The notes beneath the pieces were generated by a model. It saw only the letters and a list, made by a program, of their open reading frames with translations. It did no database searches and was not told where the DNA came from. This document shows positions 13,531-61,317 of a stretch of 64,000 nt of DNA, piece by piece. Position 1 is the first letter of the stretch. Every line of letters starts with the position of its first letter. Source of the stretch: an uncultured Verrucomicrobiae bacterium (GTDB lineage Bacteria > Verrucomicrobiota > Verrucomicrobiia > Chthoniobacterales > JAFAMB01); contig CAVXLD010000001.1 of NCBI GenBank assembly GCA_963762565.1, positions 198,286-262,285 of the forward strand, written 5' to 3'. The position numbers were made by a program, and so were the translations under genes.

Positions 13531-14381
13531 CCCTGGCGGCTCTGCTGACGTTCTTAGTGCAAGGCGCGAGATCCCAGGATTTGTCTTTGGCCGCCCAAAG
13601 CGCAGCCGTGGTTGATTCTTACTCCGGCGAATTTCTTTACACGAAAAACGCCGATGCCAAAGAATACCCGGCGAGCTCCACCAAGATTTTGACGGCGCTG
13701 ATCGTGATCGAGGCTGGCAATCTTGACCAAGTGGTAACGGTGGCTCCGGAAGATACCAAGGTCGAACCTAGCAGCCTCGATCTGAAACCGGGACAACAAT
13801 TTACGCGGCGCCAACTACTCTTCGGCATGCTGCTCAAGAGCGCCAATGACGTTGCCATGTGCTTAGCCAGAGATAATGCCGGTTCCGTCCCTGCGTTCGC
13901 CGAAAAGATGAATTTGCGGGCAGCCGAACTAGGAGCAACCTCCAGTCATTTTGTTAATCCACACGGCCTCCATGATCCCAATCACTATACGACGGCTCAT
14001 GATCTGGTCCTCATCGCGCGCGCAGCGATGCAACAGCCGCTGTTCCGTCAGATTGTTTCAACTATCTACTACACTTGGCGAACTCCCAACGGCGAAGTGG
14101 ACCAGCTACGCAACCATAACCGGTTACTCCGGCATTTCGCAGGCTGTAACGGGCTGAAAACCGGTTATACCCGGGCCGCACAGCAGGTTCTGGTGAGCTC
14201 CGCTTTGCGGGGTGGTCACGAGGTGGTCGCGGTTGTGCTTCATACCGACAAACCCGGCATCTGGGTCGATAGCAAGACCCTCTTGACCTACGGACTTATT
14301 AAGGTGGGGTGTCCAGCGGAGGATATTGTGGACACCACTGACCGGGTCGACGAGCCGGGCGATGCGGACGAAGGGAAGTGA
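13497..14381 (+). CDS. D-alanyl-D-alanine carboxypeptidase (S11, PBP5/6-like)
   Basis: Signal peptide. SSTK (SxxK), SAND (SxN) and KTG motifs. Confidence 0.85.
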   Translation: MDDGRWKTGSLALAALLTFLVQGARSQDLSLAAQSAAVVDSYSGEFLYTKNADAKEYPASSTKILTALIVIEAGNLDQVVTVAPEDTKVEPSSLDLKPGQQFTRRQLLFGMLLKSANDVAMCLARDNAGSVPAFAEKMNLRAAELGATSSHFVNPHGLHDPNHYTTAHDLVLIARAAMQQPLFRQIVSTIYYTWRTPNGEVDQLRNHNRLLRHFAGCNGLKTGYTRAAQQVLVSSALRGGHEVVAVVLHTDKPGIWVDSKTLLTYGLIKVGCPAEDIVDTTDRVDEPGDADEGK

Positions 14382-14420
14382 CTTTGGCGTTTGGCGTGTC
14401 GGCGGACGGGACCGCAATTT

Positions 14421-14701
14421 GGTGGGGCGAGGCTCCCGAACGGAAGATGTACTTTCACAGCGCCCCTCGCTGAACCTCATGAGTTGTCGGCAACACCGAT
14501 GGACCGCCGAGCCGTCGGTCTGCAGCGTTTCAATACCCCGTTAGAATGAAGAACGTGCGTAGCAGATGCTTCAGATGCGCTGATTAGTTGTACGCGCTGG
14601 GACGCGGCTCGGCACGCCAATCGGCGAAACCTCGCGCGCAGTTTCGCAAAATCGAGCCTCTTTGTCGGAGATTTTAGGTCACTCGGGAGCCTCGCCCCAC
14701 C
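14421..14701. repeat. Family A element, copy A1 (281 nt)
   Basis: TIRs ggtggggcgaggctcccgaa (14421-14440) / tcgggagcctcgccccacc (14683-14701). Internal gccgagccg (14506-14514) / cggctcggc (14605-14613). GGCGTTT units on the left flank (14384-14405). Confidence 0.9.
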
Positions 14702-14847
14702 AACGTTGGGCCGCTACACGCGGATGCTCACAGATTCTTCCTCCGCATCCCATGCCGTAACCGACTCAAAATCAAGCAATTGCGTCTATTACGGCGACCC
14801 CCTTGCAGTTTCTGTGCCACTCTCCTACTATTCACTCACGACAACTT

Positions 14848-16254: not shown

Positions 16255-17019
16255 GTGCGAATTCTAATCGTTCTTCTATGGATAGGGGTATTCACGTCGT
16301 CATTAGCCAAGGAAGCCCAATTTCGTTTTCCTCAAGACACGTTCTCTTTCTCGAATAACCTCTACTTCGATTATCATCCGGATCAGTCAGGGCACATCAT
16401 CATCAGCCGCCGGGCCCCGGGGAAGATCCCGGATTACTCACGTCATTGCTTCGCCCTAGTACGGTCGGTCCTGCAGTTTAGCCGGTTCGCCGAGTTCGAT
16501 CCTAAACTCCCGAAGGTTAGCGAAGAGGAATATCGGCAAAGGGTCCTCCGATTAGACCGATACGCTCCATACGGGCCTGGTCCGGCCAAGAAAATTGTGT
16601 TTCCCGGATATCCGAATCTTTACCAGTTCTCGGCCCATCACACCCTGATGCTACAAAAGAACCTCGGCCTATGGTGGCCGGGATATTGGCGGGTGGGCAA
16701 CTGGCGAATCGTGTTTCCGGCTCCTCGTTCCGGTCAAGAACAGTTTGCGCAATGGTTACGCCAACATCTTGACACAGGCCAGATCGAAGCCGTGTACATC
16801 ACACGATTTCGGCCGATCAACCATTGTTTAGTAGCCTACCGTTATACCACCGAACGAAATAGCGACCTGTTATTCTTTGTCTACGACGTCAACCAACCGG
16901 GAAAGATAGTTCATCTGCGGTATCACGTGGCCAATCGAAGCTTCTATTTTGACCCGAGCTGGTATTACGCCGGAGGGTTAGTTTCCGCCATGAAGTTGTA
17001 CGTCTCGCCGCTGATGTAA
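16255..17019 (+). CDS. Hypothetical secreted protein
   Basis: The GTG start abuts the rpoN stop. N-terminal signal peptide MRILIVLLWIGVFTSSLA. No domain recognised. Confidence 0.5.
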   Translation: MRILIVLLWIGVFTSSLAKEAQFRFPQDTFSFSNNLYFDYHPDQSGHIIISRRAPGKIPDYSRHCFALVRSVLQFSRFAEFDPKLPKVSEEEYRQRVLRLDRYAPYGPGPAKKIVFPGYPNLYQFSAHHTLMLQKNLGLWWPGYWRVGNWRIVFPAPRSGQEQFAQWLRQHLDTGQIEAVYITRFRPINHCLVAYRYTTERNSDLLFFVYDVNQPGKIVHLRYHVANRSFYFDPSWYYAGGLVSAMKLYVSPLM

Positions 17020-17034: not shown

Positions 17035-17270
17035 GGTGGGGCGAGGCTCCGGAACTACGATTTTGTGTTCACAGGGGAGTTGATGCACTTAACCCAGCGC
17101 TCACAATTTCGATACGCTGCCGAGCCGCTGTTCTGTCGTGTGGCCGGCACCTTATTCCATGGGAGATCAGGGGAATCGGCTCGGCGGTCCTTCCGGCCTA
17201 ACGTTGCGTCCGGCGTCAAATCATCGAGGTCTCCGATATAGCGTCCGGTCTTTCGGGAGCCTCGCCCCAC
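17035..17270. repeat. Family A element, copy A2 (236 nt)
   Basis: TIRs 17035-17054 / 17252-17270. Internal 9-mers 17119-17127 / 17177-17185. Followed by cgtttcgcccattcg units. Confidence 0.9.
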
Positions 17271-17412: not shown

Positions 17413-19044
17413 ATGTCTTTCTTCTCCTGGTTCAGGTCGAAATCGGATAAATCAGAGCAAGATGAGTTGGAGTTGAAGGGTTCGAACGAGTCTCCAGAAA
17501 GGCAGGCTGATCCCGAACACCCTCCATTTCAATCGTCGCGCGTACCCCCGCCGCGTCTCCGGGAAACAGTCCCCGGAAGTAGGTCAAAAACGGCATCACC
17601 GGTTGAGCCAAGTACCGAGACCAAAGAAGGCTTCCGTCGCCCGGTACGAGCGACCGTGGACGTACCGTTGCAAGCGTTGCTCTTACAACTGCCACCGGAA
17701 GTAACTAAATCTAACATTGATATCGACCCAAAACGTCGGGTGCAAATTCCCCGTAAATCGGTGCAAATTGATGAAGCGCACCAGACAGCAAAGGTTACTT
17801 TCGCTACCCTTTTTGCATCCTGCCCAGAAATTTTCTCGGCGCCAATTGCTCCTCTCGATCAGCGAACCCTCGATTTTAATCTCCCTGCTTGGGAAAGATC
17901 AAGATCAGCGGACTCAGGCGAACGAACGACCAGCCCAACCGCGAAGACGAAGAGCGAATCGCCAGCTCCACCCGATCGGTTGACTCCTGTCGCTGGCGAA
18001 AGGTTGCGTGGGGAAAAACCACCGATTCCCAGCCCTGAGAAGCCCGACGAAGCGCACCTGGGAGGTGCTGCCCGAAACGGTTCTGAGGTCCCGAAAACCG
18101 TGCGCGTGGCACTCGGCCCAATCATCAAGAATCTGCCGCCAGAGCTGCAGCCTTCGGAACCAAACGCGCTCGCTAACAAACCGGGGGCCACAATCGAACT
18201 CCCGTTGGCATTGATTAACTCTCAACTCGCAAATGGCCGGGTAACAATCCCCTTTTCAGCGTTGTTGCAATCGTTGCCGGAAGACGTGAAGAGCCATTTT
18301 CCACAGGCCGATACGACTGCGGAAGTTACCATCCCGATTAAAGAAATTCTGCAAGACTATCCGCAGGATCTATTGCGTCCACGAGCGGATCAAGAACCAG
18401 AAGAGGTTCTACCAGCAATATCGACCCCTTTCACCGGTCCAGCGAAAGAGGATACCGAACGTTTTGCCCACGCTCCAGAACAGCCAGAAACCGAGAAGCT
18501 GGCTACCGACAGTCATCAACTCGAGCTTATCGAACACCCGGTAACACCAAGCGATTCACCACAGCCTGTATCTAAGGAATCATCGGTTGCCGAGGCGCCT
18601 TCGGTTGTCGAGGAAAAACCGGCCACAGAGGCAGCACCAACCGTTCAAGCCAAGCCGGCACCTAACTTCTCAGCACTGCAGTCTGTATTTTTAACGGATG
18701 AAGCATTGGACTTGAACAAGGTTGTTCAAAAAGTGGGCCAGCTTCCGGGGATAAATTCTGCCCTGTTTTTTGCAGCAGACGGCAGTCTCGAAGGTGAACC
18801 AGAAAAACTGGGCCTTACTCAATCATCGGTGCAATTGCTTTCCAGCCTTACCCACGAGATTGGACAACGCGTCGAGAATTTGGGGTTCGGTCAAATCGAA
18901 ACCGTCACGCTCGGTTGGAAGCGGGAACTGGTCAGCGTTTTCACCAGGGGCGAGTCCGGCTTTGTCGTCCGTCATGAAAAGAGGCCTTTCAGGCCGGGGG
19001 TGCGTGAGAAGATCTGTCTGGTTCTCAGCCACATCTGCAGCTGA
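17413..19044 (+). CDS. Roadblock/LC7 (MglB-like) domain protein with long disordered N-terminal extension
   Basis: The C-terminal ~115 aa (about nt 18685-19044) look like a roadblock fold: VGQLPGINSALFFAADGSLEG...ETVTLGWKRELVSVFTRGESGFVV. The N-terminal ~420 aa are P/E/S-rich with a recurring (V/I)x(I/L)P...LLxxLPxxL motif. It lies directly upstream of mglA. Confidence 0.6.
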   Translation: MSFFSWFRSKSDKSEQDELELKGSNESPERQADPEHPPFQSSRVPPPRLRETVPGSRSKTASPVEPSTETKEGFRRPVRATVDVPLQALLLQLPPEVTKSNIDIDPKRRVQIPRKSVQIDEAHQTAKVTFATLFASCPEIFSAPIAPLDQRTLDFNLPAWERSRSADSGERTTSPTAKTKSESPAPPDRLTPVAGERLRGEKPPIPSPEKPDEAHLGGAARNGSEVPKTVRVALGPIIKNLPPELQPSEPNALANKPGATIELPLALINSQLANGRVTIPFSALLQSLPEDVKSHFPQADTTAEVTIPIKEILQDYPQDLLRPRADQEPEEVLPAISTPFTGPAKEDTERFAHAPEQPETEKLATDSHQLELIEHPVTPSDSPQPVSKESSVAEAPSVVEEKPATEAAPTVQAKPAPNFSALQSVFLTDEALDLNKVVQKVGQLPGINSALFFAADGSLEGEPEKLGLTQSSVQLLSSLTHEIGQRVENLGFGQIETVTLGWKRELVSVFTRGESGFVVRHEKRPFRPGVREKICLVLSHICS

Positions 19045-19077
19045 CTGCGGTTTGCAAGAACCTAGGAAGTTTGGCGA

Positions 19078-19722
19078 ATGCCGATCATAAATTACGCGAG
19101 CAAAGAAATTCAGTTCAAGATCGTCTATTACGGGCCGGCCCTGAGCGGCAAAACGACTACCATTGCCTATATCCATTCGAGGTTGCCGGCTGCGTTTCGA
19201 GGAGATTTGGTGTCGTTGGCCACCGCGGCAGACCGCACCCTCTTTTTCGATTTCTTGCCGGTTGAGGCAGTGATCTTGCAAGGCTTCAAAACCAAATTCC
19301 AGCTCTACACCGTTCCGGGGCAGGTGGTGTACAATACAACCCGGCAGTTAGTCTTACGCAGCGTTGACGGCATCGTATTTGTGGCCGATTCGCACTGGGA
19401 CAAGATCCACGAAGATGTGGAGAGTTTCCGAAATCTCGAGGAAAACCTTCGCAAACAGCATCTCTCATTGGACGAGATCCCGTATGTTCTGCAGTACAAC
19501 AAACGTGACTTGCCCGATGCGGCTCCGGTGTCGTACTTAGAATTTTTGCTGAATAACCGGCGCCGACGCGCCCGAAGTTACGAAGCGATCGCAACGAAAG
19601 GACGGAGCGTCTTCGCTGCATTAGATGCCGTGACCCAAAGCGTTCTTAACCGGTTCATTCAAGAGAATCACCTTCTCAGGCCGATGCCGGCCAGAGAGAG
19701 CGCTGGGGCGGGGAGAGTGTGA
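19078..19722 (+). CDS. mglA: MglA-type Ras-like small GTPase
   Basis: KIVYYGPALSGKTTT P-loop, DRTLFFDFLP, LYTVPGQV switch II and YNKRDLP match my recollection of Myxococcus MglA along the whole length. Confidence 0.9.
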   Translation: MPIINYASKEIQFKIVYYGPALSGKTTTIAYIHSRLPAAFRGDLVSLATAADRTLFFDFLPVEAVILQGFKTKFQLYTVPGQVVYNTTRQLVLRSVDGIVFVADSHWDKIHEDVESFRNLEENLRKQHLSLDEIPYVLQYNKRDLPDAAPVSYLEFLLNNRRRRARSYEAIATKGRSVFAALDAVTQSVLNRFIQENHLLRPMPARESAGAGRV

Positions 19723-19947
19723 ATGGTGATTGGTGATTGGTGGGGCGAGGCTCCCGAAAGGCCTTTTAGTCTTATCAAGCGGGTCAGTTCTCACCCGGAG
19801 ATTATGTCCGCTACGCCGATAAACCCGCCGAGCCGTTGGTCCACGCGAACCATGGCTCGGCAGCGTTTCGGCATAGGTCGTATCGTGGTGAGGATCTTCC
19901 CCCTGCCTTGCGATCGTCATCAGGCCTTTCCGGAGCCTCGCCCTACC
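19718..19947. repeat. Family A element, copy A3 with GTGATTG array on the left
   Basis: The array gtgtgaatggtgattggtgattgg contains the mglA stop. TIRs 19739-19758 / 19928-19947. Minimal central hairpin gccgagccgttggt-ccacgcga-accatggctcggc. Confidence 0.9.
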
Positions 19948-19994
19948 AATTACCCGCAGTTGCGCTTCTTGCCACCCTCATATATGTGTCCGAA

Positions 19995-20660
19995 ATGATC
20001 GACTACATGCAAAAGGGTGGGCCGCTGATGTGGCTTATCCTCCTGTGTAGCGCTGTCACGGTGGCGGTCTTCGTCGAGCGGTTGCTTTATTTCCATCGTG
20101 CCAACATCAATCTTGGCGAATTTCTCCAGGGATTGGCAAATCTGGTTCGAAACCGTAATCTGACCGAGGCTCGAATCGAGTGTCAGACCACCTCCGTCCC
20201 AGTAACACGAGTGCTGCATGCTGCATTGTCTCGCCCTCATCTTTCGCGCTCAGAACTCCGCGAGATTGTCGAAGAAGCCGCTCAGATCGAAATGCCTCGT
20301 CTCGAACGCAATCTCGACCTTCTGGTTGGGATTGCTTACGTCTCCCCTTTAATCGGGCTTCTAGGTACGGTGACCGGCTTAATCCAAGCCTTCGTCCAGC
20401 TCTCTGCCAGCAACGGATATGCAACCCTGGCCGATGTCTCGAGCGGGGTTTACCAAAGCCTGCTCACAACGGCCGCCAGCTTGGCCGTCGCGATTCCGAC
20501 CATCTTGGCCTACTGCTTTCTTTCCTCCAGGCTGAACGCGTTGATGCACGAAATGGAAAGGGCCGGGATTGAAATCGTGAATATCCTGACCGACACGGAG
20601 ACGCCTGCATCCATCATCGAGTTCGACCCATCGTCCCAAGCAGCCAGTGAAAAGAGATGA
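19995..20660 (+). CDS. MotA/TolQ/ExbB proton-channel family protein
   Basis: The track ORF starts at 19836, but its first 53 codons read through repeat A3. The ATG at 19995 gives MIDYMQKGGPLMWLILLCS... with three TM helices typical of ExbB/TolQ. Confidence 0.85.
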   Translation: MIDYMQKGGPLMWLILLCSAVTVAVFVERLLYFHRANINLGEFLQGLANLVRNRNLTEARIECQTTSVPVTRVLHAALSRPHLSRSELREIVEEAAQIEMPRLERNLDLLVGIAYVSPLIGLLGTVTGLIQAFVQLSASNGYATLADVSSGVYQSLLTTAASLAVAIPTILAYCFLSSRLNALMHEMERAGIEIVNILTDTETPASIIEFDPSSQAASEKR

Positions 20661-21061
20661 AGCTCGAAAGAGCAGTCCGGCTCAATCCCTACCTTCTGTT
20701 TATCGTTCCTCTGGTAGAAGTCGTTTGTCTGCTGCTGCTATTGTTTGTGGTTAGCTCCACATTCTTAGTACACCCTGGCATCAGCGTAAACCTGCCATTC
20801 TCAAAATTCACCTTAGGTACCGTCGGAAACTCGGTGATCGTCACGGTAACCGCGGGCCCCTTCCCCCGGATCTATTATCGAGATCAAGCCGTAACCTTAG
20901 ACGAGTTACGGACAGCATTCGAAAAAGACCCGGTAACTGATAAGTCAGTCATAATAAGGGCGGATCGGGAGGCGCCTCAAGGCTCTGTGGTTCAAGTTAT
21001 GAATCTCTGTCTGGATCGGGGATACTCGGTGATTCTGGCAACGTCACCCAAATCGCCGTGA
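20657..21061 (+). CDS. ExbD/TolR family biopolymer transport protein
   Basis: 134 aa with a single N-terminal TM plus periplasmic domain. ATGA overlap with the upstream gene. Confidence 0.8.
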   Translation: MKLERAVRLNPYLLFIVPLVEVVCLLLLLFVVSSTFLVHPGISVNLPFSKFTLGTVGNSVIVTVTAGPFPRIYYRDQAVTLDELRTAFEKDPVTDKSVIIRADREAPQGSVVQVMNLCLDRGYSVILATSPKSP

Positions 21062-21783
21062 AGCCAGCGGCGCGCTCCCTGCAAAATTCCATTTTCGATT
21101 GGGATCGCCCGAGATGGAACGGACGGTTGCTGTGGCTAATTGTGTTTTCTTTAGGCCTACACTTCGCGGGACTTTACGTTTTCCATGTTGTTTACCCGTC
21201 AACCACTTCTCTGCCTCCCCCAGCGGCTCAAGTCTCGGTACTGAATCCACAAAACCCACAGGACCGCCGGCTCCTTGATTGGGTGGACCTAAACGATCCG
21301 TCTGCGATTAGCGCCCCCAAAGTAGACGACAGCCTGGTCGCAAAATTAGTCCCGGGTTATCGTCCGACGTTTAGCGACGAGACCCCTGAAATCCGGAAAA
21401 GCCAGGCCGGCGCCCCAGCCCAGGAGGCGGCTACTCCTTCGCTTTTTACTCCCGACAATCTTTTCCCTAGGCAAGTCAGGCCTGCTTCTGTTCAACGGAA
21501 GACCAGTTTCGCAAGCCACCTTGAGTTCGGGCCCGCCTTGGAAAATAGAAAACCGGCCACACCGGAGAGACTCCCGACCAGCCAGCGGCTCTCAGAACCC
21601 ACGACTTTCTTTGTGGGAATCAATAAGAAAGGCGAAGTAAAATACCTTTTTCTATTGCGAACTTCGGGAAATGATCAGCTGGATCATCTTGCCGAAGAGG
21701 CTGTTAAGCAGCTGAGATTTCAGCCCGATAACACCGAGAGCTGGGACACGGTTTCGCTGCAGTGGGGCAGCGGCGGGAAGTGA
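21058..21783 (+). CDS. TonB-like / hypothetical anchored protein
   Basis: GTGA overlap with exbD. N-terminal TM, Pro-rich linker, and a C-terminal ~70 aa (VKYLFLLRTSGNDQLDHLAEEAVKQLRFQP) compatible with a TonB C-terminal fold. Weak assignment. Confidence 0.45.
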   Translation: MKPAARSLQNSIFDWDRPRWNGRLLWLIVFSLGLHFAGLYVFHVVYPSTTSLPPPAAQVSVLNPQNPQDRRLLDWVDLNDPSAISAPKVDDSLVAKLVPGYRPTFSDETPEIRKSQAGAPAQEAATPSLFTPDNLFPRQVRPASVQRKTSFASHLEFGPALENRKPATPERLPTSQRLSEPTTFFVGINKKGEVKYLFLLRTSGNDQLDHLAEEAVKQLRFQPDNTESWDTVSLQWGSGGK

Positions 21784-22055: not shown

Positions 22056-22295
22056 ATGATTCGTATCGAACTCCCAACCCTGATCTTCATCTATCTTTTT
22101 CTTTCTGTGATTGTGATCGGCGGCCTCTGGTTGTTCGATGGTTGGCGGGTCCAAAAACGTAAAAAACAAGCCTTGCGTTACGCGGTCCGGTGCACGATTT
22201 GTGCCTCTATTTTCGAAGATAAGACCAATGAGCTGCTACCTCGTTGCCCACGATGCGGCAGCTTAAATGAGAGAAGAAACTTTGGAGGACTTTGA
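22056..22295 (+). CDS. Small membrane protein with C-terminal zinc ribbon
   Basis: 79 aa. One TM (LIFIYLFLSVIVIGGLWLF) and CxxC...CxxC (CTIC...CPRC). Confidence 0.45.
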   Translation: MIRIELPTLIFIYLFLSVIVIGGLWLFDGWRVQKRKKQALRYAVRCTICASIFEDKTNELLPRCPRCGSLNERRNFGGL

Positions 22296-23532: not shown

Positions 23533-24780
23533 GTGATGAGCGATAGACGTGTTGTAGTCACCGGGTTGGGTGTTATCACACCAATCGGTAATGACCTTAA
23601 AACCTTTTGGGAGAACCTTGTAGCGGGGAAAAACGGGATCCGTAAGATCTCGCATTTCGACGCCTCCATCTTCGACTGTCACATTGCCGGCGAGGTGCCA
23701 GATTTCGATCCCATTACGTATCTGGCTAATCCTAAGGACGTTCGGCGGACCGACCGTTTTTCCCAATTTGCTCTGGCCTGCTCAAAGCGGGCCCTAGAAG
23801 ACAGTGGTCTCGATCTGGAACGCATCGACCGCACTCGGGTCGGCGTCCTGGTCGGCAGTGGGATCGGCGGCTTGAGCACACTGGAGACCCAACATGTGGT
23901 TTTCTTGAAGAAAGGCCCTTCCAGAGTGTCTCCCTTCATGGTGCCAATGATGATCGTGAACATGGCCAGCGGATTAATCGCGATGGAATACGGCTTTGAA
24001 GGCCCGAATTATTCTATCGTGACCGCTTGTGCCACCTCCGCGAACTCCATTGGCGAAGCTTGGAGGATGATTCGCGATGATGAAGCCGAGATTTTCTTGG
24101 CCGGCGGTACCGAGGCGGTCATCAATAATCTTGGCCTCGGCGGCTTCTGTGCGATGCGGGCGATGAGCACGAGAAACGATGAACCGCACCGGGCATCGCG
24201 CCCATTCGATAGGGAACGAGACGGGTTCGTGATGGGTGAAGGCGGTGGAGTCTTAATTCTCGAGGAGTACGAACACGCAAAGGCTCGAGGGGCACGCATC
24301 TACTGCGAACTCGCTGGTTATGGACTTACCTGCGATGCTTACCACATGACCGCGCCCAAACCCGATGGGACGCCGGTAGCGCGAGGGATGCAAATCGCCG
24401 CGAAGCGGGCCGGCGTTAATCCGACGGATATTGATTACATCAACGCTCACGCCACATCGACACAGGTCGGCGATGTTTGCGAAACGAATGCGATTAAACG
24501 GTTCGCCGGTGATTACGCGAAAAATGGTCTTTTGATTAGCTCAACCAAATCGATGATTGGTCATCTGCTCGGCGGCGCTGGAGCAGTAGAAAGCGCGGTC
24601 TGCATCCTTGCCATGCAACATGGTGTGGTGCCGCCCACGATCAATCTCGACAATCCTGACCCTGAGTGCGACCTCGACTACGTCCCAAATGTCGCACGCG
24701 AGAAAAAAGTACGAGTCGCACTTAATAATTCGTTTGGCTTCGGCGGCCACAACGCATCGCTTTGTTTCAAAGCATTGTAG
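23533..24780 (+). CDS. fabF: 3-oxoacyl-ACP synthase II
   Basis: RRVVVTGLGVITPIG, ACATS active-site Cys, HATST and GHLLGGAG motifs. Confidence 0.95.
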   Translation: MMSDRRVVVTGLGVITPIGNDLKTFWENLVAGKNGIRKISHFDASIFDCHIAGEVPDFDPITYLANPKDVRRTDRFSQFALACSKRALEDSGLDLERIDRTRVGVLVGSGIGGLSTLETQHVVFLKKGPSRVSPFMVPMMIVNMASGLIAMEYGFEGPNYSIVTACATSANSIGEAWRMIRDDEAEIFLAGGTEAVINNLGLGGFCAMRAMSTRNDEPHRASRPFDRERDGFVMGEGGGVLILEEYEHAKARGARIYCELAGYGLTCDAYHMTAPKPDGTPVARGMQIAAKRAGVNPTDIDYINAHATSTQVGDVCETNAIKRFAGDYAKNGLLISSTKSMIGHLLGGAGAVESAVCILAMQHGVVPPTINLDNPDPECDLDYVPNVAREKKVRVALNNSFGFGGHNASLCFKAL

Positions 24781-24939
24781 GGGGCGTTTGGCGTTCGGCG
24801 TTCGGCGTTTGGCGTTCGGCGTTCGGCGTTCCTATGATTCGAAATGATTGCAACACTGCGGATCTGTCGTGGCTCGTGAGCAAGCGACGCGCGTTATTGA
24901 AGCGCCGAACGCCAAACGGTGAACGCCGAACGCCAAACG
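24781..24939. repeat. Array-bracketed element G1 (GGCGTTY arrays)
   Basis: Seven GGCGTTY units (24781-24830) start 1 nt after the fabF stop. A 71-nt core follows. The inverted array gcgccgaacgccaaacggtgaacgccgaacgccaaacg is at 24902-24939. Confidence 0.85.
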
Positions 24940-25800
24940 AGTAAGTACGTCGTTCTTCTGCTCCTGACCGCATTGTTTTGGTCGTTGGGAGGAGTCCTCA
25001 TCAAGTCCATCGATTGGAATCCTGTCGCCATTGCGGGTTCGCGAAGCTTGATCGCCGTCTTCCTAATCGCCATCCTGCGACCGTCCGCCGTCCGTAAATT
25101 TTCCTGGACCGCATTCTTCGGCGGAATCGCCTACATGGTGACAGTTGTGTTGTTCGTGATTGCAACCAAGCTGACAACCGCTGCCAATGCCATTTTTCTC
25201 CAGTACACGGCTCCGATTTATATCGCTCTGATAAGCCCATGGCTTTTGAAGGAACGTGTTCGTCGACTGGACTGGATTCTGATCGGTCTTGCTTTCGGCG
25301 GAATTGCTCTCTTTTTCTGCGACCGGCTCTCCTTTGCCGGAATTTGGGGAGTAATGGCCGCACTTGTCAGCGGCTTCTCCTACGCGTGGCTTACGATGCT
25401 GTTGCGTCGCCAAAAATCGGCATCCCCCGAAGCCACGGTGTTCATAGGCAACTTGATGACTGTGTTAGTGGCGGCTCCGGCGATGTGGCCGCCGGTGAAC
25501 CTGGGCCATAATTGGCCTTGGCTGCTTGCCTTGGGCGTCCTCCAGCTCACGATTCCCTATTTGCTTTATACACAGGCTATCCGGCATGTGCGTGCGCTGG
25601 ATGCATCTATAATCAGCATGATCGAGCCGATCCTTAATCCGATCTGGGTCATGTTTGCCGTGGGCGAACATCCCGCCAGATGGGCAATCGTCGGAGGATG
25701 CATGGTCCTGGGAACCTCTTTGCTACGGAGTATCTTCGCCTCGCGCGAGCCCGAATCCGAATTCGCCTTAGGCTCATCCGGAATGACAAATGACAGATGA
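24919..25800 (+). CDS. DMT (EamA) family transporter
   Basis: About 10 TM helices in two EamA-like halves. The start is uncertain because the first codons lie in the GGCGTTY-type array. The stop and last ~13 codons lie in element F1. Confidence 0.75.
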   Translation: MNAERQTSKYVVLLLLTALFWSLGGVLIKSIDWNPVAIAGSRSLIAVFLIAILRPSAVRKFSWTAFFGGIAYMVTVVLFVIATKLTTAANAIFLQYTAPIYIALISPWLLKERVRRLDWILIGLAFGGIALFFCDRLSFAGIWGVMAALVSGFSYAWLTMLLRRQKSASPEATVFIGNLMTVLVAAPAMWPPVNLGHNWPWLLALGVLQLTIPYLLYTQAIRHVRALDASIISMIEPILNPIWVMFAVGEHPARWAIVGGCMVLGTSLLRSIFASREPESEFALGSSGMTNDR

Positions 25801-25902
25801 AAAATGACAGATTGGGAAATCCTTCGGTCACACGCGTTCTATTTCGGACATTTGTCATCTGTCATTTGTCATTTGTCATTCGAAACGAGCCTCAGGCGAG
25901 TT
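25760..25902. repeat. Family F element, copy F1 (143 nt)
   Basis: aattcgccttaggctcatccggaATGACAAATGACAGATGAAAAATGACAG, core attgggaaatccttcggtcacacgcgttctatttcggac, then the inverted TGTCATY array and cgaaacgagcctcaggcgagtt. Confidence 0.9.
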
Positions 25903-26486: not shown

Positions 26487-27231
26487 CGGCTTCTGTGAGC
26501 GCTGCTAACACCCGTTCCTTCCAAGCCGTGAAGGCATGATCCTGTCGAGAACGAGGCCGAGGAAGATCGATCCGAAATTGGCGATGAATTTGTCCGGGGC
26601 GTCCCTTGATCACAACGATGCTGTCGGATAATGCGACCGCTTCTTCAATATCGTGCGTCACGAAAAACATGGTCAACGAATGCCTCGCAAAAAGCTCCAT
26701 CAAATGGTCTTGCAGCCGGCTTCGGGTGAGAGCATCGAGGGCGCTAAACGGCTCGTCCAGCAATAGAAGAGATGGTTTTCGCACTAAGGCTCTGGCTATC
26801 GCCACCCTTTGAGCCATCCCTCCCGACAATTGGCGCGGGTAATAATGGGAGAAGGATTCTAAACCAACTTGCTCCAGAATTTCCTTCGCCAACGCTCCGA
26901 TCCGGCTATGCCCGGCCGGGCCGAACCCGAATTCCACATTTTGGCGAACGGTCAGCCACGGCATGAGTCGGGGCTCTTGAAACACGACGCCTAGGTTGGG
27001 GCGTTCGGCATTTGGCGTTTGGCGTTCGGCGTTCGGCGCACGATCGCTATCCCAGCGGATTTCTCCGGAGGTCGGGCGCTCAAGTCCAGCTAGAATCCGC
27101 AACAGCGTGCTTTTGCCCGAGCCGGTCGTACCCACCATCACCGTGACTTGTTGCGGCTCGATCGAAAGCTCAAGATTAGCAATCACCAAAGCGTCACCGT
27201 AAGCCTTCGTTATCTGATCGATTCTTACCAT
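26476..27231 (-). CDS. ABC transporter ATP-binding protein, NitT/TauT (SsuB/TauB-like) family
   Basis: Walker A GTTGSGKST, signature LSGGMAQR, Walker B LLLLDEP. The true start is probably MVRIDQI at 27231, since the track start at 27330 reads through element F3. It contains an in-frame heptamer-array insertion. Confidence 0.9.
   Translation of the reverse strand: MVRIDQITKAYGDALVIANLELSIEPQQVTVMVGTTGSGKSTLLRILAGLERPTSGEIRWDSDRAPNAERQTPNAERPNLGVVFQEPRLMPWLTVRQNVEFGFGPAGHSRIGALAKEILEQVGLESFSHYYPRQLSGGMAQRVAIARALVRKPSLLLLDEPFSALDALTRSRLQDHLMELFARHSLTMFFVTHDIEEAVALSDSIVVIKGRPGQIHRQFRIDLPRPRSRQDHAFTAWKERVLAALTEAELA
26994..27042. repeat. GGCGTTY heptamer array inside the ABC ATPase coding sequence
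   Basis: ggttggggcgttcggcatttggcgtttggcgttcggcgttcggcgcacg. Translated on the minus strand it gives APNAERQTPNAERPN, between the Walker A region and the VVFQEPRLMPW Q-loop. Confidence 0.85.
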
Positions 27232-27243
27232 TGAACTCGCTGA

Positions 27244-27377
27244 GGCTCCTTCAAGATGACAATGACAGATGACAGATGACAAATGTCCGAAATAGACCGC
27301 GCGTGACCGAAGGATCTCCCAATCTGTCATCTGTCATTTGTCATTCCGAACGAGCCTCAGGCGAGTTCGGCTGATAG
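27244..27377. repeat. Family F element, copy F3 (core inverted relative to F1/F2)
   Basis: aactcgctgaggctccttcaagATGACAATGACAGATGACAGATGACAA, core atgtccgaaatagaccgcgcgtgaccgaaggatctcccaatc, then TGTCATCTGTCATTTGTCATtccgaacgagcctcaggcgagtt. Confidence 0.9.
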
Positions 27378-31053: not shown

Positions 31054-31345
31054 TTAGTGATTAGTGATTGGCGATGGCGCTGGTCGGGCGAGGCTCCCGA
31101 AAGAACTAAAGTCTCTAACGAAGATCCAGACGTTTCGGCCTGAAAGAGTTTGTTAGGCCGATCGGTGTGCCGAGCCGTGGTTCCGCGCGTAACCCGGCTC
31201 GGCGCGTTGCTAGAAGTAGCATGCCTTCTTAATTCGGAATGCGAAGGGAGATGGAAAATCACAGAGTCTTTCGGGAGCCTCGCCCTACCAACGGCGTCTC
31301 ATCCACCATCACCTCTCACCAATCACCAATCACTTCTCACCTTCT
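31051..31345. repeat. Family A element, copy A5 with inverted TGATTAG-type arrays
   Basis: The array starts on the aldo/keto reductase TGA stop. TIRs 31082-31101 / 31270-31289. Central hairpin gccgagccgtggtt-ccgcgcgt-aacccggctcggc. Right array atcaccaatcaccaatcact (to ~31345). Confidence 0.9.
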
Positions 31346-39966: not shown

Positions 39967-40944
39967 TTGCTCAAAGATCCTATGCCGCCCAACCAAACGT
40001 TGATAGCGGAAGCTCCGGCGAAAAAAACGCCTGTCCCGAAAAGCTCTTTGCCTTCCGGGCTGCGCGCCGCCTATCGCAGCGGTATTCTGACGACGCTGCT
40101 TTTGTTTTTGCCTCCGGCGCTCGTGCTCTTCAGCATGTTCGTTATCCTGCCGGTCGGCGAAGCCAGCTATTTCAGCTTTTTTAACTGGAACGGGTACGGC
40201 CATCCCAATAAGTGGATCGATTTCGTAAATTATTTTCGCGTCCTGCGCGACCCGGTTTTTCTGCAGTCACTGGGAAATAATGGTCTGGTCATCCTAGTCT
40301 CAGCTTTTATTCAGGTGCCGCTGGCGCTCTGGGTAGCCCTTCTGATCTCCGATCGAAGCCGGTCCAGCATCGTGTTTCGGGCGATCTTTTTCGTTCCTTA
40401 CATACTGGCTGACGTCGTGGCCGGTCTGATTTGGCGTTATCTCTACGACGGTGATTATGGAATTGTCGGCACGATCTTTCGTTGGTTTGGGCGTGATGCC
40501 CCCGATGTCCTGGCAGAGACCGGGTGGGCGACAGCGGCGCTATTATTAGTCGTGGTCTGGAAATATTTCGGATTTCACATGGCGCTGTTCATTGCTGGAC
40601 GCCAAAACGTCCCCAACGACGTACTCGAGTCGGCGCGAATCGACGGCGCCAGCCGTTGGAACATTACCCGTTTCATAGTTCTTCCGCTGATGCGGCCAGT
40701 CATTGTTCTTTCTCTGTTTTTTAGCTTGCTCGGGTCTCTACAACTCTTTGACCTCATTATCGCGCTGACTGGTGGAGGTCCGCTCAATTCAACCCACTCG
40801 GCGGTCTCTTACCTCTACACGTTTGGAATCAGGCGGATGCAAGTCGGTTTTGGCAGTGCGGTCGGAGTTATCCTTTTTATTATCTGCGTTCTGGTCATGA
40901 TTTTCTATAAGCGCATCTTTATGCGGGAGTCTGCCTCCAAATGA
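39967..40944 (+). CDS. Carbohydrate ABC transporter permease
   Basis: 6-TM MalF-type permease with the EAA-like loop ESARIDGASRWNITRFIVLP. Start uncertain (39967 or 39982). Confidence 0.85.
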   Translation: MLKDPMPPNQTLIAEAPAKKTPVPKSSLPSGLRAAYRSGILTTLLLFLPPALVLFSMFVILPVGEASYFSFFNWNGYGHPNKWIDFVNYFRVLRDPVFLQSLGNNGLVILVSAFIQVPLALWVALLISDRSRSSIVFRAIFFVPYILADVVAGLIWRYLYDGDYGIVGTIFRWFGRDAPDVLAETGWATAALLLVVVWKYFGFHMALFIAGRQNVPNDVLESARIDGASRWNITRFIVLPLMRPVIVLSLFFSLLGSLQLFDLIIALTGGGPLNSTHSAVSYLYTFGIRRMQVGFGSAVGVILFIICVLVMIFYKRIFMRESASK

Positions 40945-41762
40945 AATCCCTCTTCAGTTACTATCGATGGTTGGTCTTGCTTCTGGTAGCGAGTTTTTGC
41001 CTGGTTCCATTGTGGGCAACCGTCGTGGGTGGGTTTAAGTCGACGGGTGACCTCCGTACGAATGCTCTCGGCTTGCCCCGGCAGTGGCTGGTAGACAATT
41101 ATATTTCCATCGTCTCGACTCCGCGGTTTTGGCAGATGCTTTGGAATTCGGCTGTGATCGCCTTTTTCACGGTCGTACTAACATTGATAGTCAGTTCACT
41201 AGCTGCATATACTCTAGCTCATTTGCGCTTCGCTGGGCGCAAATGGATCGCCAACTACCTGACCCTGGGACTGACTTTCCCGTTCGCCACTGCAGTCTTG
41301 CCAGTATTTATTCGGGTTCGCGATCTCGGCCTGCTCGACACCTACTGGGGCGTCATCCTCCCCCAAGTCGCCTTTAACTTAAGCTTTAGCATCGTGTTGC
41401 TGCGCGGTTTCTTCTCAGAGTTACCAAAGGAATTGTTTGAAGCTGCGATCATGGATGGTTGCAGTTATCCACGAATCTTTTTGCGCATTACCCTGCCGCT
41501 CTCTCGCCCGATCCTGGCCACTGTCGGCGTTCTGGCTCTGGTCGGAAGCTGGAACAACTTCCTTTTGCCATTGGTTACCATCAATGACGACTCCGTTTAT
41601 CCATGGCCTTTAGGAATCATGCAGTTTCAAGGTCAATACAGCACCGACTGGGGGAAGGTGCTGGCTTTCGTAACCCTCACCATGCTTCCCGCTATCACGC
41701 TGTATCTGATGGCCCAGAAACAGGTCATTGCCGGCCTTACTTCGGGAGCCGTTAAGGGTTAG
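40941..41762 (+). CDS. Carbohydrate ABC transporter permease
   Basis: MalG-type permease with the loop EAAIMDGCSYPRIFLRITLPLSRP. ATGA overlap with the upstream permease. Confidence 0.85.
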   Translation: MKSLFSYYRWLVLLLVASFCLVPLWATVVGGFKSTGDLRTNALGLPRQWLVDNYISIVSTPRFWQMLWNSAVIAFFTVVLTLIVSSLAAYTLAHLRFAGRKWIANYLTLGLTFPFATAVLPVFIRVRDLGLLDTYWGVILPQVAFNLSFSIVLLRGFFSELPKELFEAAIMDGCSYPRIFLRITLPLSRPILATVGVLALVGSWNNFLLPLVTINDDSVYPWPLGIMQFQGQYSTDWGKVLAFVTLTMLPAITLYLMAQKQVIAGLTSGAVKG

Positions 41763-41897
41763 CGTTTGGCGTTTGGCGTTCGGCGTTGGCAGTTGGTAGC
41801 GCTCGAGCTCAGTAAGCGGTTTTCTTCTACATAGCGCTCATTATTTTGGGACGACCACGGCCGCCTTTCACCTTTCACTTCTCACTGATCACTAACC
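41763..41897. repeat. Hybrid array element G2 (GGCGTTY array left, CCTTTCA/CTNATCA array right)
   Basis: cgtttggcgtttggcgttcggcgttggc starts 1 nt after the permease stop. Right side cctttcacctttcacttctcactgatcactaacc. The two arrays are not complementary. Confidence 0.7.
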
Positions 41898-42296
41898 TTG
41901 AGCATTGGACACAAACCATTCACACTCCTACCCATGGCCGAGCTCACAACCTATCTCTTCCCTGCTGTCCAAGGATTGTTTTGCCTGATCGTAGCCGTGG
42001 TATGGCTGATCGGGTTTATTCGTCAGCGAAACATCGGTTTTTTGCTATTGACCCTGGCGACGCTTGCCGAAGGTGTAACCAGTCCAATCCGGCAGGTGCT
42101 AATCAATTACGTGATCTTTCATGAGTCTCATCTCTCCGCTGCAGAACGGTCGACCGCCCTTGCAACGATTTCCTACACGATTCTTGGTTTTTACATCGTG
42201 TTTTGGCTGGTTACCGCCCTCGGCGCGACGTTGGTGGTGTTCCATCGATCAAAACATCAGATAGCTCCCGGACCAATTCCTCCCGTGTCTGGTTAG
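41898..42296 (+). CDS. Hypothetical membrane protein
   Basis: 132 aa with about four hydrophobic helices. TTG start, so the start is uncertain. Confidence 0.4.
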   Translation: MSIGHKPFTLLPMAELTTYLFPAVQGLFCLIVAVVWLIGFIRQRNIGFLLLTLATLAEGVTSPIRQVLINYVIFHESHLSAAERSTALATISYTILGFYIVFWLVTALGATLVVFHRSKHQIAPGPIPPVSG

Positions 42297-42317
42297 ATCG
42301 ATCGCACATAAATAGCG

Positions 42318-42349
42318 TTGGCGGTTTCGCACCGCTGCGAAACCGCCAA
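42318..42349. terminator. Hairpin between convergent genes (candidate bidirectional terminator)
   Basis: ttggcggtttcgca-ccgc-tgcgaaaccgccaa is a 14-bp perfect stem. It lies between the 41898-42296 (+) stop and the 42391-42897 (-) stop. The flanking U-tract is weak. Confidence 0.5.
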
Positions 42350-42390
42350 GTCGGCTACTCCTGAAAAACTGGAGTCAGGTTAAAGGGTTC

Positions 42391-42897
42391 TTATTTGCGC
42401 TCAACCTTGACCTTGCGGCCGGTTTGATGGTCGAGATAGATCTCCTTGTTTCCCTTTTTCTCGATCAGTTCATACCGGCTTGGGGCCTGTTGAACTTCCT
42501 GCGTGGTAACCACCGCATCGTCGCCAGTTGATTCTACCACCGTGCCTGGCCGCTCAGTGACCACCGTGTTAGGCCGCTCGGTGGTGGTTGTCGTGGTAGT
42601 CTCCCGCACGCCGCCCGCTGGGGCTTGCAGAATGGAGCCAGTCGGTGACACGTAAATCACTTGCTGACCCGAGTCACCCATGTACGTCACGGCATACTCT
42701 CCTCCGGTGTCCTGGACCACGCGTACTACTTTCGTCGGAGACGCAATTCTTGTTTCTCTAATCACCGACGATTGGACAACTTGGGGCAGGGTTGTGAATT
42801 GAAGCACCTCGTCAGCTTTCGCGATCCCAACGAGTGATACACCTACTCCGGCAACGGCGATAAGACGTGTTACGTTTGTCATTAATTGATCTTTCAT
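42391..42897 (-). CDS. Secreted protein, PepSY-like, paralogue of 43023-43940
   Basis: Signal peptide. QFTTLPQVVQSSVIRE...VVRVVQDTGGEYAVTYMGDSGQQVIYVSPTGSI aligns with the neighbouring gene. The C-terminal YELIEKKGNKEIYLDHQTGRKV motif is shared. Confidence 0.5.
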   Translation of the reverse strand: MKDQLMTNVTRLIAVAGVGVSLVGIAKADEVLQFTTLPQVVQSSVIRETRIASPTKVVRVVQDTGGEYAVTYMGDSGQQVIYVSPTGSILQAPAGGVRETTTTTTTERPNTVVTERPGTVVESTGDDAVVTTQEVQQAPSRYELIEKKGNKEIYLDHQTGRKVKVERK

Positions 42898-42910
42898 TTT
42901 TGCAGTTGGC

Positions 42911-42938
42911 GTCTCGCGCCAATCTGGTGACGCGAGAC
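42911..42938 (-). terminator. Short GC hairpin between the two tandem paralogues
   Basis: gtctcgcg-ccaatctggtga-cgcgagac is an 8-bp stem, downstream of the 43023-43940 stop. Confidence 0.3.
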
Positions 42939-43022
42939 TAGCCTTTACTCTTTCTATTTCGCAGACGGGACAGTTCTTGGATCTATCTCCAGGCCATCAC
43001 TGCTGCTGGTTTTTAGATTCGA

Positions 43023-43940
43023 CTAAGAACCCGGCGAGGGTTTCGCTTTGCTCTTGGATTTGTCCTGAGACTGGGATTTCTCCTGAGACTGTTGTTGTTC
43101 GCCAGGAGTCCGGCTTGTTTGATGCTGCTCCTTGTCGCCCTGGTTCTCCTTCATGTTGCGCTGATCCGCATTCTTTTCATCGGTCCGCGGATTTCCTGAG
43201 GTGTCACGAGTTTTCTGCTCTTGACCATTGCCAACGCGCTCTTGGTTCCCTTGATCCTTTTGTTCTCCCCGACTCACATTATGCTGAGTCTTCTGCTCCT
43301 CCCTCATATTCTTGTTGGCTTCCTTGGCATTGCCTTCGTCGGTTTTTTCGCGCATAGCGCCCGACTGCTGATCTTTGTCTTCAGTACGAACGCTACCCTT
43401 GTTCTCTTGGTCCGTTCGGACATTGGTTTTATCCGTCTCGTTCGTTCGGATATTCGTTTTGTTTTCTTCCGTAGTCCGACCGCCGCCCCGCGAAACTTCA
43501 CTAGCGCCACCTTTGACGATCACTCTCTTGTTGGTCTGATGATCGATATAGATCGCGTCTGGTCCCTGGTCTTGCACGAACTCGTAACGTTCACCCCCGC
43601 TCCGGATCTCATCCATTGTGATCGTCACTTCCGACGATCCCTGTCCGCCTTGTTCGATCACCGTGCTCGGCCGCTCGACGATGGTTCCATCCGCGTTGAC
43701 GTAGACGATCTGGTCTCCGCTATCCGTCAAAACCGTGATTTCGTAGATATTGTCCGGCTCTTCCACAACGCGGACAACCTTCTCCGGGCTTACGATATTG
43801 TAATGATGAAAAACAGTTGTCCGAACTACCTGTGGCAAGGTGGTGAATTGGATCTCTTTTTTAACCTCTTTTGCTTCCGTGGCCGCACACAGACAGAGAC
43901 CGAGTGCACAGGCCGCGATAATATACTTTGTTCTATTCAT
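43023..43940 (-). CDS. Secreted protein, PepSY-like N-terminal half plus ~150-aa charged disordered tail
   Basis: Signal peptide ACALGLCLCAATEA. QFTTLPQVVRTTVFHHYN...EITVLTDSGDQIVYVNADGTIV. The tail is rich in K/E/Q/N/R/T with short repeats (TNIRTNETDKTNVRTDQENKGSVRTEDKD). Confidence 0.5.
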   Translation of the reverse strand: MNRTKYIIAACALGLCLCAATEAKEVKKEIQFTTLPQVVRTTVFHHYNIVSPEKVVRVVEEPDNIYEITVLTDSGDQIVYVNADGTIVERPSTVIEQGGQGSSEVTITMDEIRSGGERYEFVQDQGPDAIYIDHQTNKRVIVKGGASEVSRGGGRTTEENKTNIRTNETDKTNVRTDQENKGSVRTEDKDQQSGAMREKTDEGNAKEANKNMREEQKTQHNVSRGEQKDQGNQERVGNGQEQKTRDTSGNPRTDEKNADQRNMKENQGDKEQHQTSRTPGEQQQSQEKSQSQDKSKSKAKPSPGS

Positions 43941-44211
43941 TGGCTTTCTCTTTGATTTACTTCTCTCCCGCCGTACCGGACTCCGAGCCGGGACAGTGAC
44001 TCCCCTGTAGTAGGTATCGCGGTCCCGTCGCCGGGCGGATCTGTAAGATTGCTTTTACGAGAAGCGAAAAGATTCGCTGATCGAGGTAGAACGCGATGCG
44101 GATGCTTGTTTACTCGCGTGGCAACGACTAGACCGCCGGGTCAACTCGCTGCAATTTACTGACAAGAGAATTAACTACAGGATGCTTCCCGACTACCTCG
44201 AGAATCAATGC

Positions 44212-46648: not shown

Positions 46649-46894
46649 GGTGGGGCGAGGCTCCGGAATAACCTGAAATGGCAAACGGAGAACTCGATTT
46701 AGTCTAAACCGAGATCGCGCTTCGCCAATGGGCGCGCCGAGCCGATCCCAGCGTGTGGCAGCCGACGATCGGTCAGGGGGGGTGGAACATGCTGGGACCG
46801 GCTCGGCGCGTTTAGCGGCATCGCCCACGATAGATTGGCAAACATTGACGTCCTCCGCTCGAGCAAAGCGGCCGTTCGGGAGCCTCGCCCCACC
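46649..46894. repeat. Family A element, copy A6 (246 nt)
   Basis: TIRs 46649-46668 / 46875-46894. Internal 9-mers 46736-46744 / 46799-46807. Confidence 0.9.
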
Positions 46895-61035: not shown

Positions 61036-61317
61036 GGTAGGGCGAGGCTCCCGAACATCCCGACATCTTCGCAACGCCGGGGATGATCTTCTACCAGTGT
61101 ATTAACGTGGCCGATCAGCGCGCCGAGCCGTTGGTCCCAGCGAGTTCCATGACCCACAAGAACGGATCGAAGGTTTTTAAAAGTTCTCGCACGTCGAAGC
61201 GGTTAAATCAGCGCTGGGTAAATCGGCTCGGCGGGCAGACCGGGGCTGGACGCGTTTAATCCAAAAAATCACGGGCCCTGCGAAAGTGCATTCGTAATTC
61301 GGGAGCCTCGCCCTACC
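61036..61317. repeat. Family A element, copy A9 (282 nt)
   Basis: TIRs ggtagggcgaggctcccgaa (61036-61055) / ttcgggagcctcgccctacc (61298-61317). Internal 9-mers 61122-61130 / 61224-61232. Confidence 0.9.

Follow-up and report, generated by a model that had tools for sequence, protein, structure and literature searches.

A long multi-domain roadblock protein encoded directly upstream of an Ala21-type MglA in a Chthoniobacterales clade

The MglA/MglB pair is the model for a Ras-like switch that sets bacterial cell polarity, and what is known of it comes almost entirely from Myxococcus and Thermus. The established role of MglA lies in pilus polarity, and the Agl-Glt gliding motor contains one TolQ-like and two TolR-like subunits (AglQ and AglS). 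Canonical MglB is a single-domain protein of 129-179 amino acids (aa) (PMC4316618), and in the Ragulator and Asgard systems roadblock dimers serve as GTPase-docking scaffolds (PMC10933270). Here we describe a locus within a window of 64,000 nucleotides (the whole stretch of DNA analysed; contig CAVXLD010000001.1, positions 198,286 to 262,285) from an uncultured Verrucomicrobiae bacterium of the Chthoniobacterales, in which a gene for a long roadblock-domain protein lies directly upstream of mglA, and exbB-, exbD- and tonB-like genes follow downstream. The reading we favour, at a probability of roughly 60%, is that the core feature is a two-gene module of the long roadblock protein and mglA, that this pair is its clade's version of a three-gene cassette, and that the exbB-exbD-tonB genes are an unrelated neighbour.

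An initial annotation of the window had listed five co-oriented open reading frames (ORFs) at this locus, namely the partner gene, mglA, exbB, exbD and a tonB-like gene, and all five were confirmed; the partner gene stops 33 bp before mglA (~35 bp across the clade). The same five genes adjoin in related genomes, which form one Chthoniobacterales clade (hereafter the clade).

17413..19044, + strand: partner gene, 543 aa, long roadblock-domain partner of MglA
19078..19722, + strand: mglA, 214 aa, of the Ala21 P-loop subfamily and ending in a C-terminal tail of ~20 aa
19986..20660, + strand: exbB/tolQ-family proton-channel subunit (PF01618), probably in a separate operon from mglA
20657..21061, + strand: exbD/tolR-family subunit (PF02472), its start overlapping the exbB stop
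21058..21783, + strand: probable divergent TonB-family gene, with a short cytosolic N-terminus, a transmembrane (TM) helix, a Pro-rich region and a TonB_C-like domain

The assignment of the second gene to MglA was borne out. Its translation carries the four motifs named in the initial annotation (YYGPALSGKTT, DRTLFFDFLP, LYTVPGQV and YNKRDLP), and a phmmer search of the PDB matched residues 1-195 to solved structures of Thermus thermophilus MglA (3t12, E 1.4e-62) and Myxococcus xanthus MglA (E ~1e-59, the level of entries 6h17, 6hjh and 5ymx). The intrinsic Arg finger R53, the catalytic Gln82, the Thr78 of the G3 motif (TVPGQ, with Thr rather than Asp) and the NKRD motif are all kept and are invariant in the clade, whose MglA proteins are 66-97% identical and retain all catalytic residues. 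The predicted product of 19078-19722 is, by these marks, a bona fide MglA.

Its P-loop (window 19132-19155) reads GPALSGKT, placing Ala21 at the position of Ras Gly12, and so departs from the canonical GPGLxGKT. This residue is the signature of a subfamily (pattern GPA[LM]xGKT) across the 113 loci that we fetched and the window, with Ala21 common to 72 loci of the subfamily that has the long partner. Gene order follows the same division: Ala21-type MglA has the long partner upstream and, outside the clade, mglB downstream, and Gly21-type MglA has mglB upstream, in the Myxococcus-like order, and no long partner. Ala21 is a subfamily variant and gives no ground for excluding the protein from the MglA family. 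We also considered Ala21 as a marker of MglB loss and rejected it, given that the residue is present in every sister locus with mglB.

The partner protein is far longer than canonical MglB, as the initial annotation had remarked (543 aa against 129-179 aa; PMC4316618). Searched as a single sequence it had no match in Pfam, NCBIfam or the PDB, so that alignments and structure prediction were needed. Among 107 close homologues, the named ones all come from metagenome-assembled genomes of Verrucomicrobiota/Chthoniobacterales. AlphaFold2 (AF2) models, with confidence given as pLDDT (predicted local distance difference test), together with profile comparisons, delimit the following parts.

17413..17454, + strand: N-terminal hydrophobic-then-basic motif MSFFSWFRSKSDKS, nearly invariant in the clade
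17644..17907, + strand: repeat module 1 (aa ~78-165), beta-strand/helix units, includes the motif copy VDVPLQALLLQLPPEV, AF2 pLDDT 84-96
18088..18468, + strand: repeat module 2 (aa ~226-352), three strict motif copies, AF2 pLDDT 84-93
18655..19044, + strand: roadblock/LC7-fold domain (aa ~415-543), the C-terminal ~125 aa

The AF2 model of the C-terminal domain, built with 84 homologues, has the topology a-b-b-a-b-b-b-a (a, helix; b, strand) at pLDDT 83-92. When it was compared with the PDB by Foldseek, all 50 matches listed were roadblock-fold proteins, at a probability of 1.00 and with target-normalised TM-scores mostly of 0.6-0.7; they included Asgard Roadblock, dynein LC7, MP1/p14/LAMTOR and M. 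xanthus MglB (6hjm and 6izw, target-normalised TM-score 0.61-0.68). A 27-homologue profile searched against the PDB found only the Robl_LC7 proteins 7f8f and 7f8m, the matches (E 0.012 and 0.79) covering the last ~110 residues, and the Pfam Robl_LC7 gathering score was passed by the homologues at three loci (L043, L044 and L074) but not by the window protein. Profile and fold methods thus both detect within 17413-19044 the roadblock/LC7 domain that had been proposed, and we regard this C-terminal domain as established.

The region ahead of it had been described as a disordered, P/E/S-rich extension with four copies of a repeat motif. The strict motif does occur exactly four times (aa 82, 230, 277 and 305), with degenerate copies besides, and three linkers (aa 1-77, 166-225 and 353-414) are indeed rich in Pro, Glu and Ser, each at 10-17%; the description as disordered does not hold for the two modules between them, which reach pLDDT ~90 in a dedicated AF2 run on the N-terminal part. 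By hhalign (E 5e-6) the two modules are homologues of one another; they belong to no Pfam family and have no credible fold neighbour in the PDB (best Foldseek E 1.4); module 2 is the most conserved part of the long-protein family outside the roadblock domain. The N-terminal ~414 aa are accordingly modelled as two homologous folded modules joined by Pro/Glu/Ser-rich linkers, and are not simply disordered. Motifs like the N-terminal one recur throughout the family (for example, FLRGLFRR and LKNLFKK). The interpretation of the N-terminal motif as an amphipathic membrane-targeting helix was dropped after its hydrophobic moment proved to be no higher than that of shuffled controls. Within the clade the partner retains 33 invariant and many near-invariant positions among sequences down to ~30% identity, and near its C-terminus it carries a clade-specific invariant motif, RPF(K/R)PGVREK.

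Long proteins of this kind are not confined to the clade. In a metagenome scan with a broad MglA alignment we recovered 80 mglA loci (MglA 50-97% identity), and in ~40-44 of these a long ORF ends just upstream of mglA (~40 by module and roadblock hidden Markov models (HMMs), 44 by BLAST clustering); the module-2 HMM matches long partners in 36 loci. The long ORFs are typically 460-830 aa, occasionally ~1,100 aa, and combine a repeat module with a C-terminal roadblock domain, and the named MglA clusters at these loci derive from Chthoniobacterales, Verrucomicrobiae, Candidatus (Ca.) Acidoferrum of the Acidobacteriota, and Ca. Binatia. An exhaustive HMMER profile search of 1.84 billion cluster representatives, each standing for a cluster at 50% identity, returned 1,550 at E<=1e-3 and 801 at E<=1e-10, with a conserved core at profile positions ~225-545 that corresponds to module 2 and the roadblock domain. 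A literature search found no paper on this long roadblock-protein family. The window partner shares the defining arrangement, that is, repeat modules and a C-terminal roadblock domain encoded directly upstream of an Ala21-type mglA, and its sequence places it in a large family that has no name and spans several phyla (Verrucomicrobiota, Acidobacteriota and Ca. Binatia). We consider this family, rather than any coupling of the GTPase to a motor, to be the notable result.

In some family members a ComEA-like helix-hairpin-helix (HHH_3) segment is inserted after the modules and ahead of the roadblock domain (L043, 3496-5988, and L044, 3386-5647, by Pfam; L084, 3847-5985, by alignment), a DNA-binding-type motif that is unexpected in a GTPase regulator.

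Outside the clade the cassette takes the form long protein, Ala21-type mglA, canonical mglB: canonical MglB is encoded directly 3' of mglA at every one of the 32 non-clade Ala21 loci whose flanks are long enough, and these sister-locus MglBs are of ordinary size (156-168 aa) and score 29-51 bits against Robl_LC7. Because the long protein and canonical MglB are encoded in one cassette, the long protein is best seen as a third component and not as a stretched MglB. The clade loci lack the third gene. In the window and the 33 other scorable clade loci alike (34/34), the 1.5 kb around mglA hold no canonical mglB, and a canonical-MglB HMM run over the six-frame translation of the whole window and these 33 loci gave no match even at E<=1; nor did it match the partner protein at that threshold. 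With no canonical mglB at the clade locus, the long protein is the sole co-encoded roadblock partner of MglA there and the best candidate for the controller of its nucleotide state.

We propose that the long protein would act as a scaffold-type regulator of MglA. Its roadblock domain may self-associate into a dimer or possibly, in lineages that have MglB, pair with that protein, and the dimer would then dock on MglA as other roadblock proteins do on their GTPases; the modules and flexible linkers could tether the resulting complex to the membrane, the cell pole or a pilus motor. The exbB-exbD-tonB genes would on this proposal be an ordinary, separately transcribed outer-membrane energiser operon that is next door by chance.

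The surroundings of the cassette in other lineages suggest where such a complex might operate. In four loci from other Verrucomicrobiota (L037, L038, L043 and L044) a gene for a PilB-type ATPase (MshEN + T2SSE, E 8e-145 for a family example) lies immediately upstream, with gaps of only 1-3 bp in L037 and L038, and MshEN-domain proteins precede PilB in those loci. At loci of the Acidobacteriota/Binatia type, a divergently transcribed receiver + PATAN regulator adjoins the cassette; PATAN proteins are a known class associated with MglA/MglB (PMC4316618), and PilB is a target of such regulators in cyanobacteria (bioRxiv 10.1101/2021.06.11.447907). Outside the clade, the setting of the family is thus one of type IV pili and polarity.

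Several observations weigh against the favoured reading and should be kept in view. When aligned by hhalign to 14 sister-locus MglBs, the partner's roadblock domain falls in register but at E 0.3-0.36, which is not significant; given the lack of significant profile similarity to MglB, GTPase-activating protein (GAP) activity of the long protein cannot be assumed. That the long protein binds MglA is our best guess from its fold and gene context. A tblastn search of the window and the 33 clade loci found neither pilB nor cheA, and the annotated parts of the 64-kb window hold no pilus, chemosensory or PATAN gene, so that the type IV pilus link is borrowed from other lineages. The absence of mglB and pilB is a finding on the clade loci themselves. 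Finally, the adjacency of mglA and exbB is kept in ~30 species-level genomes, which is compatible with a functional link and is not proof of one.

The family assignments of the downstream genes hold up, securely for ExbB and ExbD. ExbB scores 97.9 bits against PF01618 (cutoff 22.9), with the NCBIfam tolQ and exbB equivalogs both below their cutoffs, so that ExbB and TolQ cannot be told apart, and ExbD scores 57.4 bits against PF02472 (cutoff 25.4) and keeps the acidic TM residue (Glu22 in the window, Asp in most orthologues). The start listed for exbB, a TTG at 19836, lies within a repeat element; judging by the orthologues, which have 221-224 aa and begin MSEMIDY or MIDY, the start is probably GTG 19986 or ATG 19995, which leaves a spacer of ~263 bp after mglA. 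The overlaps of exbB with exbD and of exbD with tonB are real and span 4 bp each (20657-20660 and 21058-21061). The third protein falls below both relevant cutoffs (TonB_C 21.1 bits, cutoff 24.6; TIGR01352 22.1, cutoff 27.1); in the PDB an 11-orthologue profile found TonB C-terminal domains and nothing else (E 0.005 and 0.02), and 6 of the 11 orthologues match TonB_C. It is probably a divergent TonB-family protein, predicted to have ~20 cytosolic residues.

The gene after tonB (22056-22295) encodes 79 aa, comprising a TM helix at the N-terminus and a CxxC...CxxC zinc ribbon that is predicted to be cytoplasmic; the gene shares 29 bp with the start of guaB3, and its product is 58-95% identical within the clade. 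In Myxococcus the Zn-ribbon domain of GltJ binds MglB (PMC11135422), and we regard the small protein as a loose lead only.

The initial annotation had called the physical linkage of these genes suggestive of a polarity- or motility-type or envelope-energising system, adding that linkage alone proves no functional connection. Spelled out, MglA and its partner would control or couple to ExbB-ExbD-TonB, as a minimal gliding-type or polarity-controlled energising system comparable to AglRQS/Glt in Myxococcus. The suggestion is not without appeal: virtually every clade locus has exbB-exbD-tonB after mglA, including those with a partner of only 27-30% identity, the operon takes the place that canonical mglB has in sister lineages, the small TM and Zn-ribbon gene comes after tonB, and the TonB-like GltJ of the Myxococcus gliding machine binds both MglA-GTP and MglB (PMC11135422). 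The synteny, however, extends over a whole 13-gene clade block (amidohydrolase, S11 peptidase, rpoN, DUF8321/8322, partner, mglA, exbB, exbD, tonB, Zn-ribbon, guaB3, fabF and eamA) that is equally collinear throughout, and the mglA-exbB adjacency therefore carries no specific signal. At one clade locus, L003, the order rpoN-DUF8321-partner-mglA is kept and the block breaks exactly at the mglA/exbB junction, with unrelated genes after mglA and with exbBD-tonB and the rest elsewhere; none of the 78 mglA loci outside the clade (55 of them with at least 2 kb of flank on at least one side) was matched by an HMM for ExbB, ExbD or the TonB-like protein. The mglA-exbB spacer ranges from ~60 to 500 bp across the clade, is never an overlap and tolerates an inserted repeat; scans of the spacers for sigma-70 promoters, sigma-54 promoters and terminators did no better than chance. 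The GltJ precedent does not transfer, since GltJ binds through a 377-residue cytosolic region of Zn-ribbon (ZnR), linker and GYF domain (PMC11135422) and the TonB-like protein here has ~20 cytosolic residues and no ZnR-linker-GYF region; there is likewise one ExbD-type gene against the two TolR-like subunits AglQ and AglS, and no Glt-like genes were seen. We judge the coupling distinctly unlikely. A narrower version, in which the clade was rewired so that MglA and the long scaffold, after loss of the adjacent mglB and pilB, came to act on ExbB-ExbD-TonB, perhaps with the Zn-ribbon protein, has a slim chance of being right; if true, an envelope energiser gated by a GTPase, or a gliding-type motor of minimal form, would exist outside the Myxococcota. 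A functional coupling of MglA to ExbBD-TonB is not supported and should not be taken forward on present evidence, and the break in L003, the variable spacer and the loci outside the clade argue for two independent units, partner-mglA and exbB-exbD-tonB.

It may instead be asked whether the long protein is simply this lineage's MglB, a GAP with a localising N-terminal extension that replaced the canonical protein lost from the locus. The roadblock fold fits, as does the position of the partner as the only roadblock gene near mglA in 34/34 clade loci, where the MglB HMM is silent at E<=1, and the clade-invariant RPF(K/R)PGVREK could reflect a newly acquired function. The same family, however, coexists with canonical MglB in sister cassettes, so that its ancestral role was not that of MglB; it shows no significant profile similarity to canonical MglB, and the absence of mglB covers the locus rather than whole genomes. 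We therefore do not regard the long protein as a giant MglB, and consider the replacement itself unlikely. The pair might also be a decaying, functionless remnant of a pilus-polarity cassette, as would fit a locus that, compared with sister lineages, has lost mglB and pilB, but this is hard to credit for genes whose ORFs are intact in 35/35 clade loci, whose MglA is 66-97% identical with every catalytic residue in place, and whose partner holds 33 positions invariant across sequences down to ~30% identity. Our preferred reading thus remains the two-gene module of a long roadblock protein and an Ala21-type MglA, with the operon as its neighbour.

The repeat that had been noted between mglA and exbB is real, and it belongs to a family resembling miniature inverted-repeat transposable elements (MITEs). 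Its 13-bp terminal inverted repeat, GGGGCGAGGCTCC, has 15 matches in the window against 0.17 expected.

19742..19944, strand not assigned: MITE-like copy A3, in the mglA-exbB spacer, bounded by GGGGCGAGGCTCC
14424-14698, 17038-17268, 31085-31286, 46652-46891 and 61039-61314: further MITE-like copies, intergenic, ~200-275 bp
775, 53783 and 57179: single MITE ends

MITE-like copies were found only in the closest relatives and there at varying positions, which marks the insertions as recent; A3 is a young insertion and no part of the GTPase system. Another copy, 17038-17268, lies upstream of the partner gene. We considered whether these two copies bracket partner-mglA as a composite mobile unit and rejected the idea, as relatives free of the MITE have the same gene order. 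Elsewhere in the block, distant clade members carry between the S11 peptidase gene and rpoN a gene for an NtrC-type sigma-54 activator (receiver + Sigma54_activat + HTH_8; L001 5977-7347, L003 6152-7522, L004 333-1703); it is missing in the window (14381-14803) and the closest relatives, and a MITE copy fills the gap in the window. A 254-aa secreted protein (16255-17019; DUF8321/DUF8322, Pfam) starts at the base after the rpoN stop, a position kept in all clade loci.

Further along, short repeats of two kinds lie at 24600-24980, 25804-25890 and 26950-27330: a run that encodes AFGVRRS/AFGVWRS or RRTPNAERQTPNAE, depending on the frame, and two copies of a segment encoding MTDWEILRS..YFGHLSSVICH at the 5' ends of unrelated ORFs. 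They are probably another intergenic repeat family. The AT skew at 40000-44000 is strongly negative (-0.27), as gene content explains: the + strand holds two genes for ABC permeases, and the - strand those of two secreted, low-complexity paralogues (42391-42897 and 43023-43940). At the far end of the window, 61371-63092 encodes a dynamin-like GTPase of 573 aa (Dynamin_N, E 3e-19) that is unrelated to the MglA finding.

Taken more broadly, the data point to a large Ala21 MglA subfamily, spread over at least three phyla, whose genes are always preceded by one for an unnamed long multi-domain roadblock protein; in many genomes this protein shares an operon with the pilus ATPase PilB. If the long protein is a scaffold, a GEF (guanine-nucleotide exchange factor) or a co-GAP, polarity modules in bacteria would have a new core component, and prokaryotes another roadblock platform on small GTPases, which bears on how the eukaryotic Ragulator/longin-roadblock systems arose. 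The clade offers a natural experiment in this respect, because its cassette has no canonical MglB at the locus.

With the ExbB-ExbD-TonB and TolQ-TolR-TolA energiser operons, and with the AglRQS-GltJ/GltG gliding motor, the downstream operon shares its family domains, its layout of overlapping genes and the acidic TM residue of ExbD/TolR. Unlike Agl-Glt, it has a single ExbD/TolR gene, lacks a cytosolic ZnR-GYF region of the GltJ kind and shows no further Glt genes; beyond one clade, it is not recurrently linked to mglA. Structurally, the partner's C-terminal domain is matched best by Ragulator LAMTOR2/3 (MP1/p14) and Asgard Roadblock (PMC10933270); the likeness is one of fold, at 10-20% identity, and a GEF or scaffold role of the long protein would be drawn by analogy. 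MglC and the accessory roadblock proteins (PMC4719450, PMC9481161) offer a parallel as second roadblock proteins beside MglB, as the long protein is in sister lineages, but MglC is small, single-domain and not encoded with mglA, whereas the long protein combines disordered linkers with novel N-terminal modules and is always encoded directly upstream of mglA; the homology shown between the two extends to the common fold. Relative to MglB of Myxococcus and Thermus, the window roadblock protein has two extra folded modules and three linkers, and the order mglB-mglA of those genera is replaced here by long protein-mglA, followed in sister lineages by the mglB that is missing at the clade locus. 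The window MglA, for its part, is 51-53% identical to the M. xanthus and T. thermophilus proteins and has the same R53, Gln82, Thr78 and NKRD; it differs from these Group 1 proteins (PMC4316618) in the Ala that replaces the P-loop Gly and in its ~20-aa C-terminal tail. As in Myxococcus and Thermus, a gene of the roadblock fold lies immediately beside mglA, and the sister loci tie the cassette to PilB, matching the pilus-polarity role of MglA in both genera.

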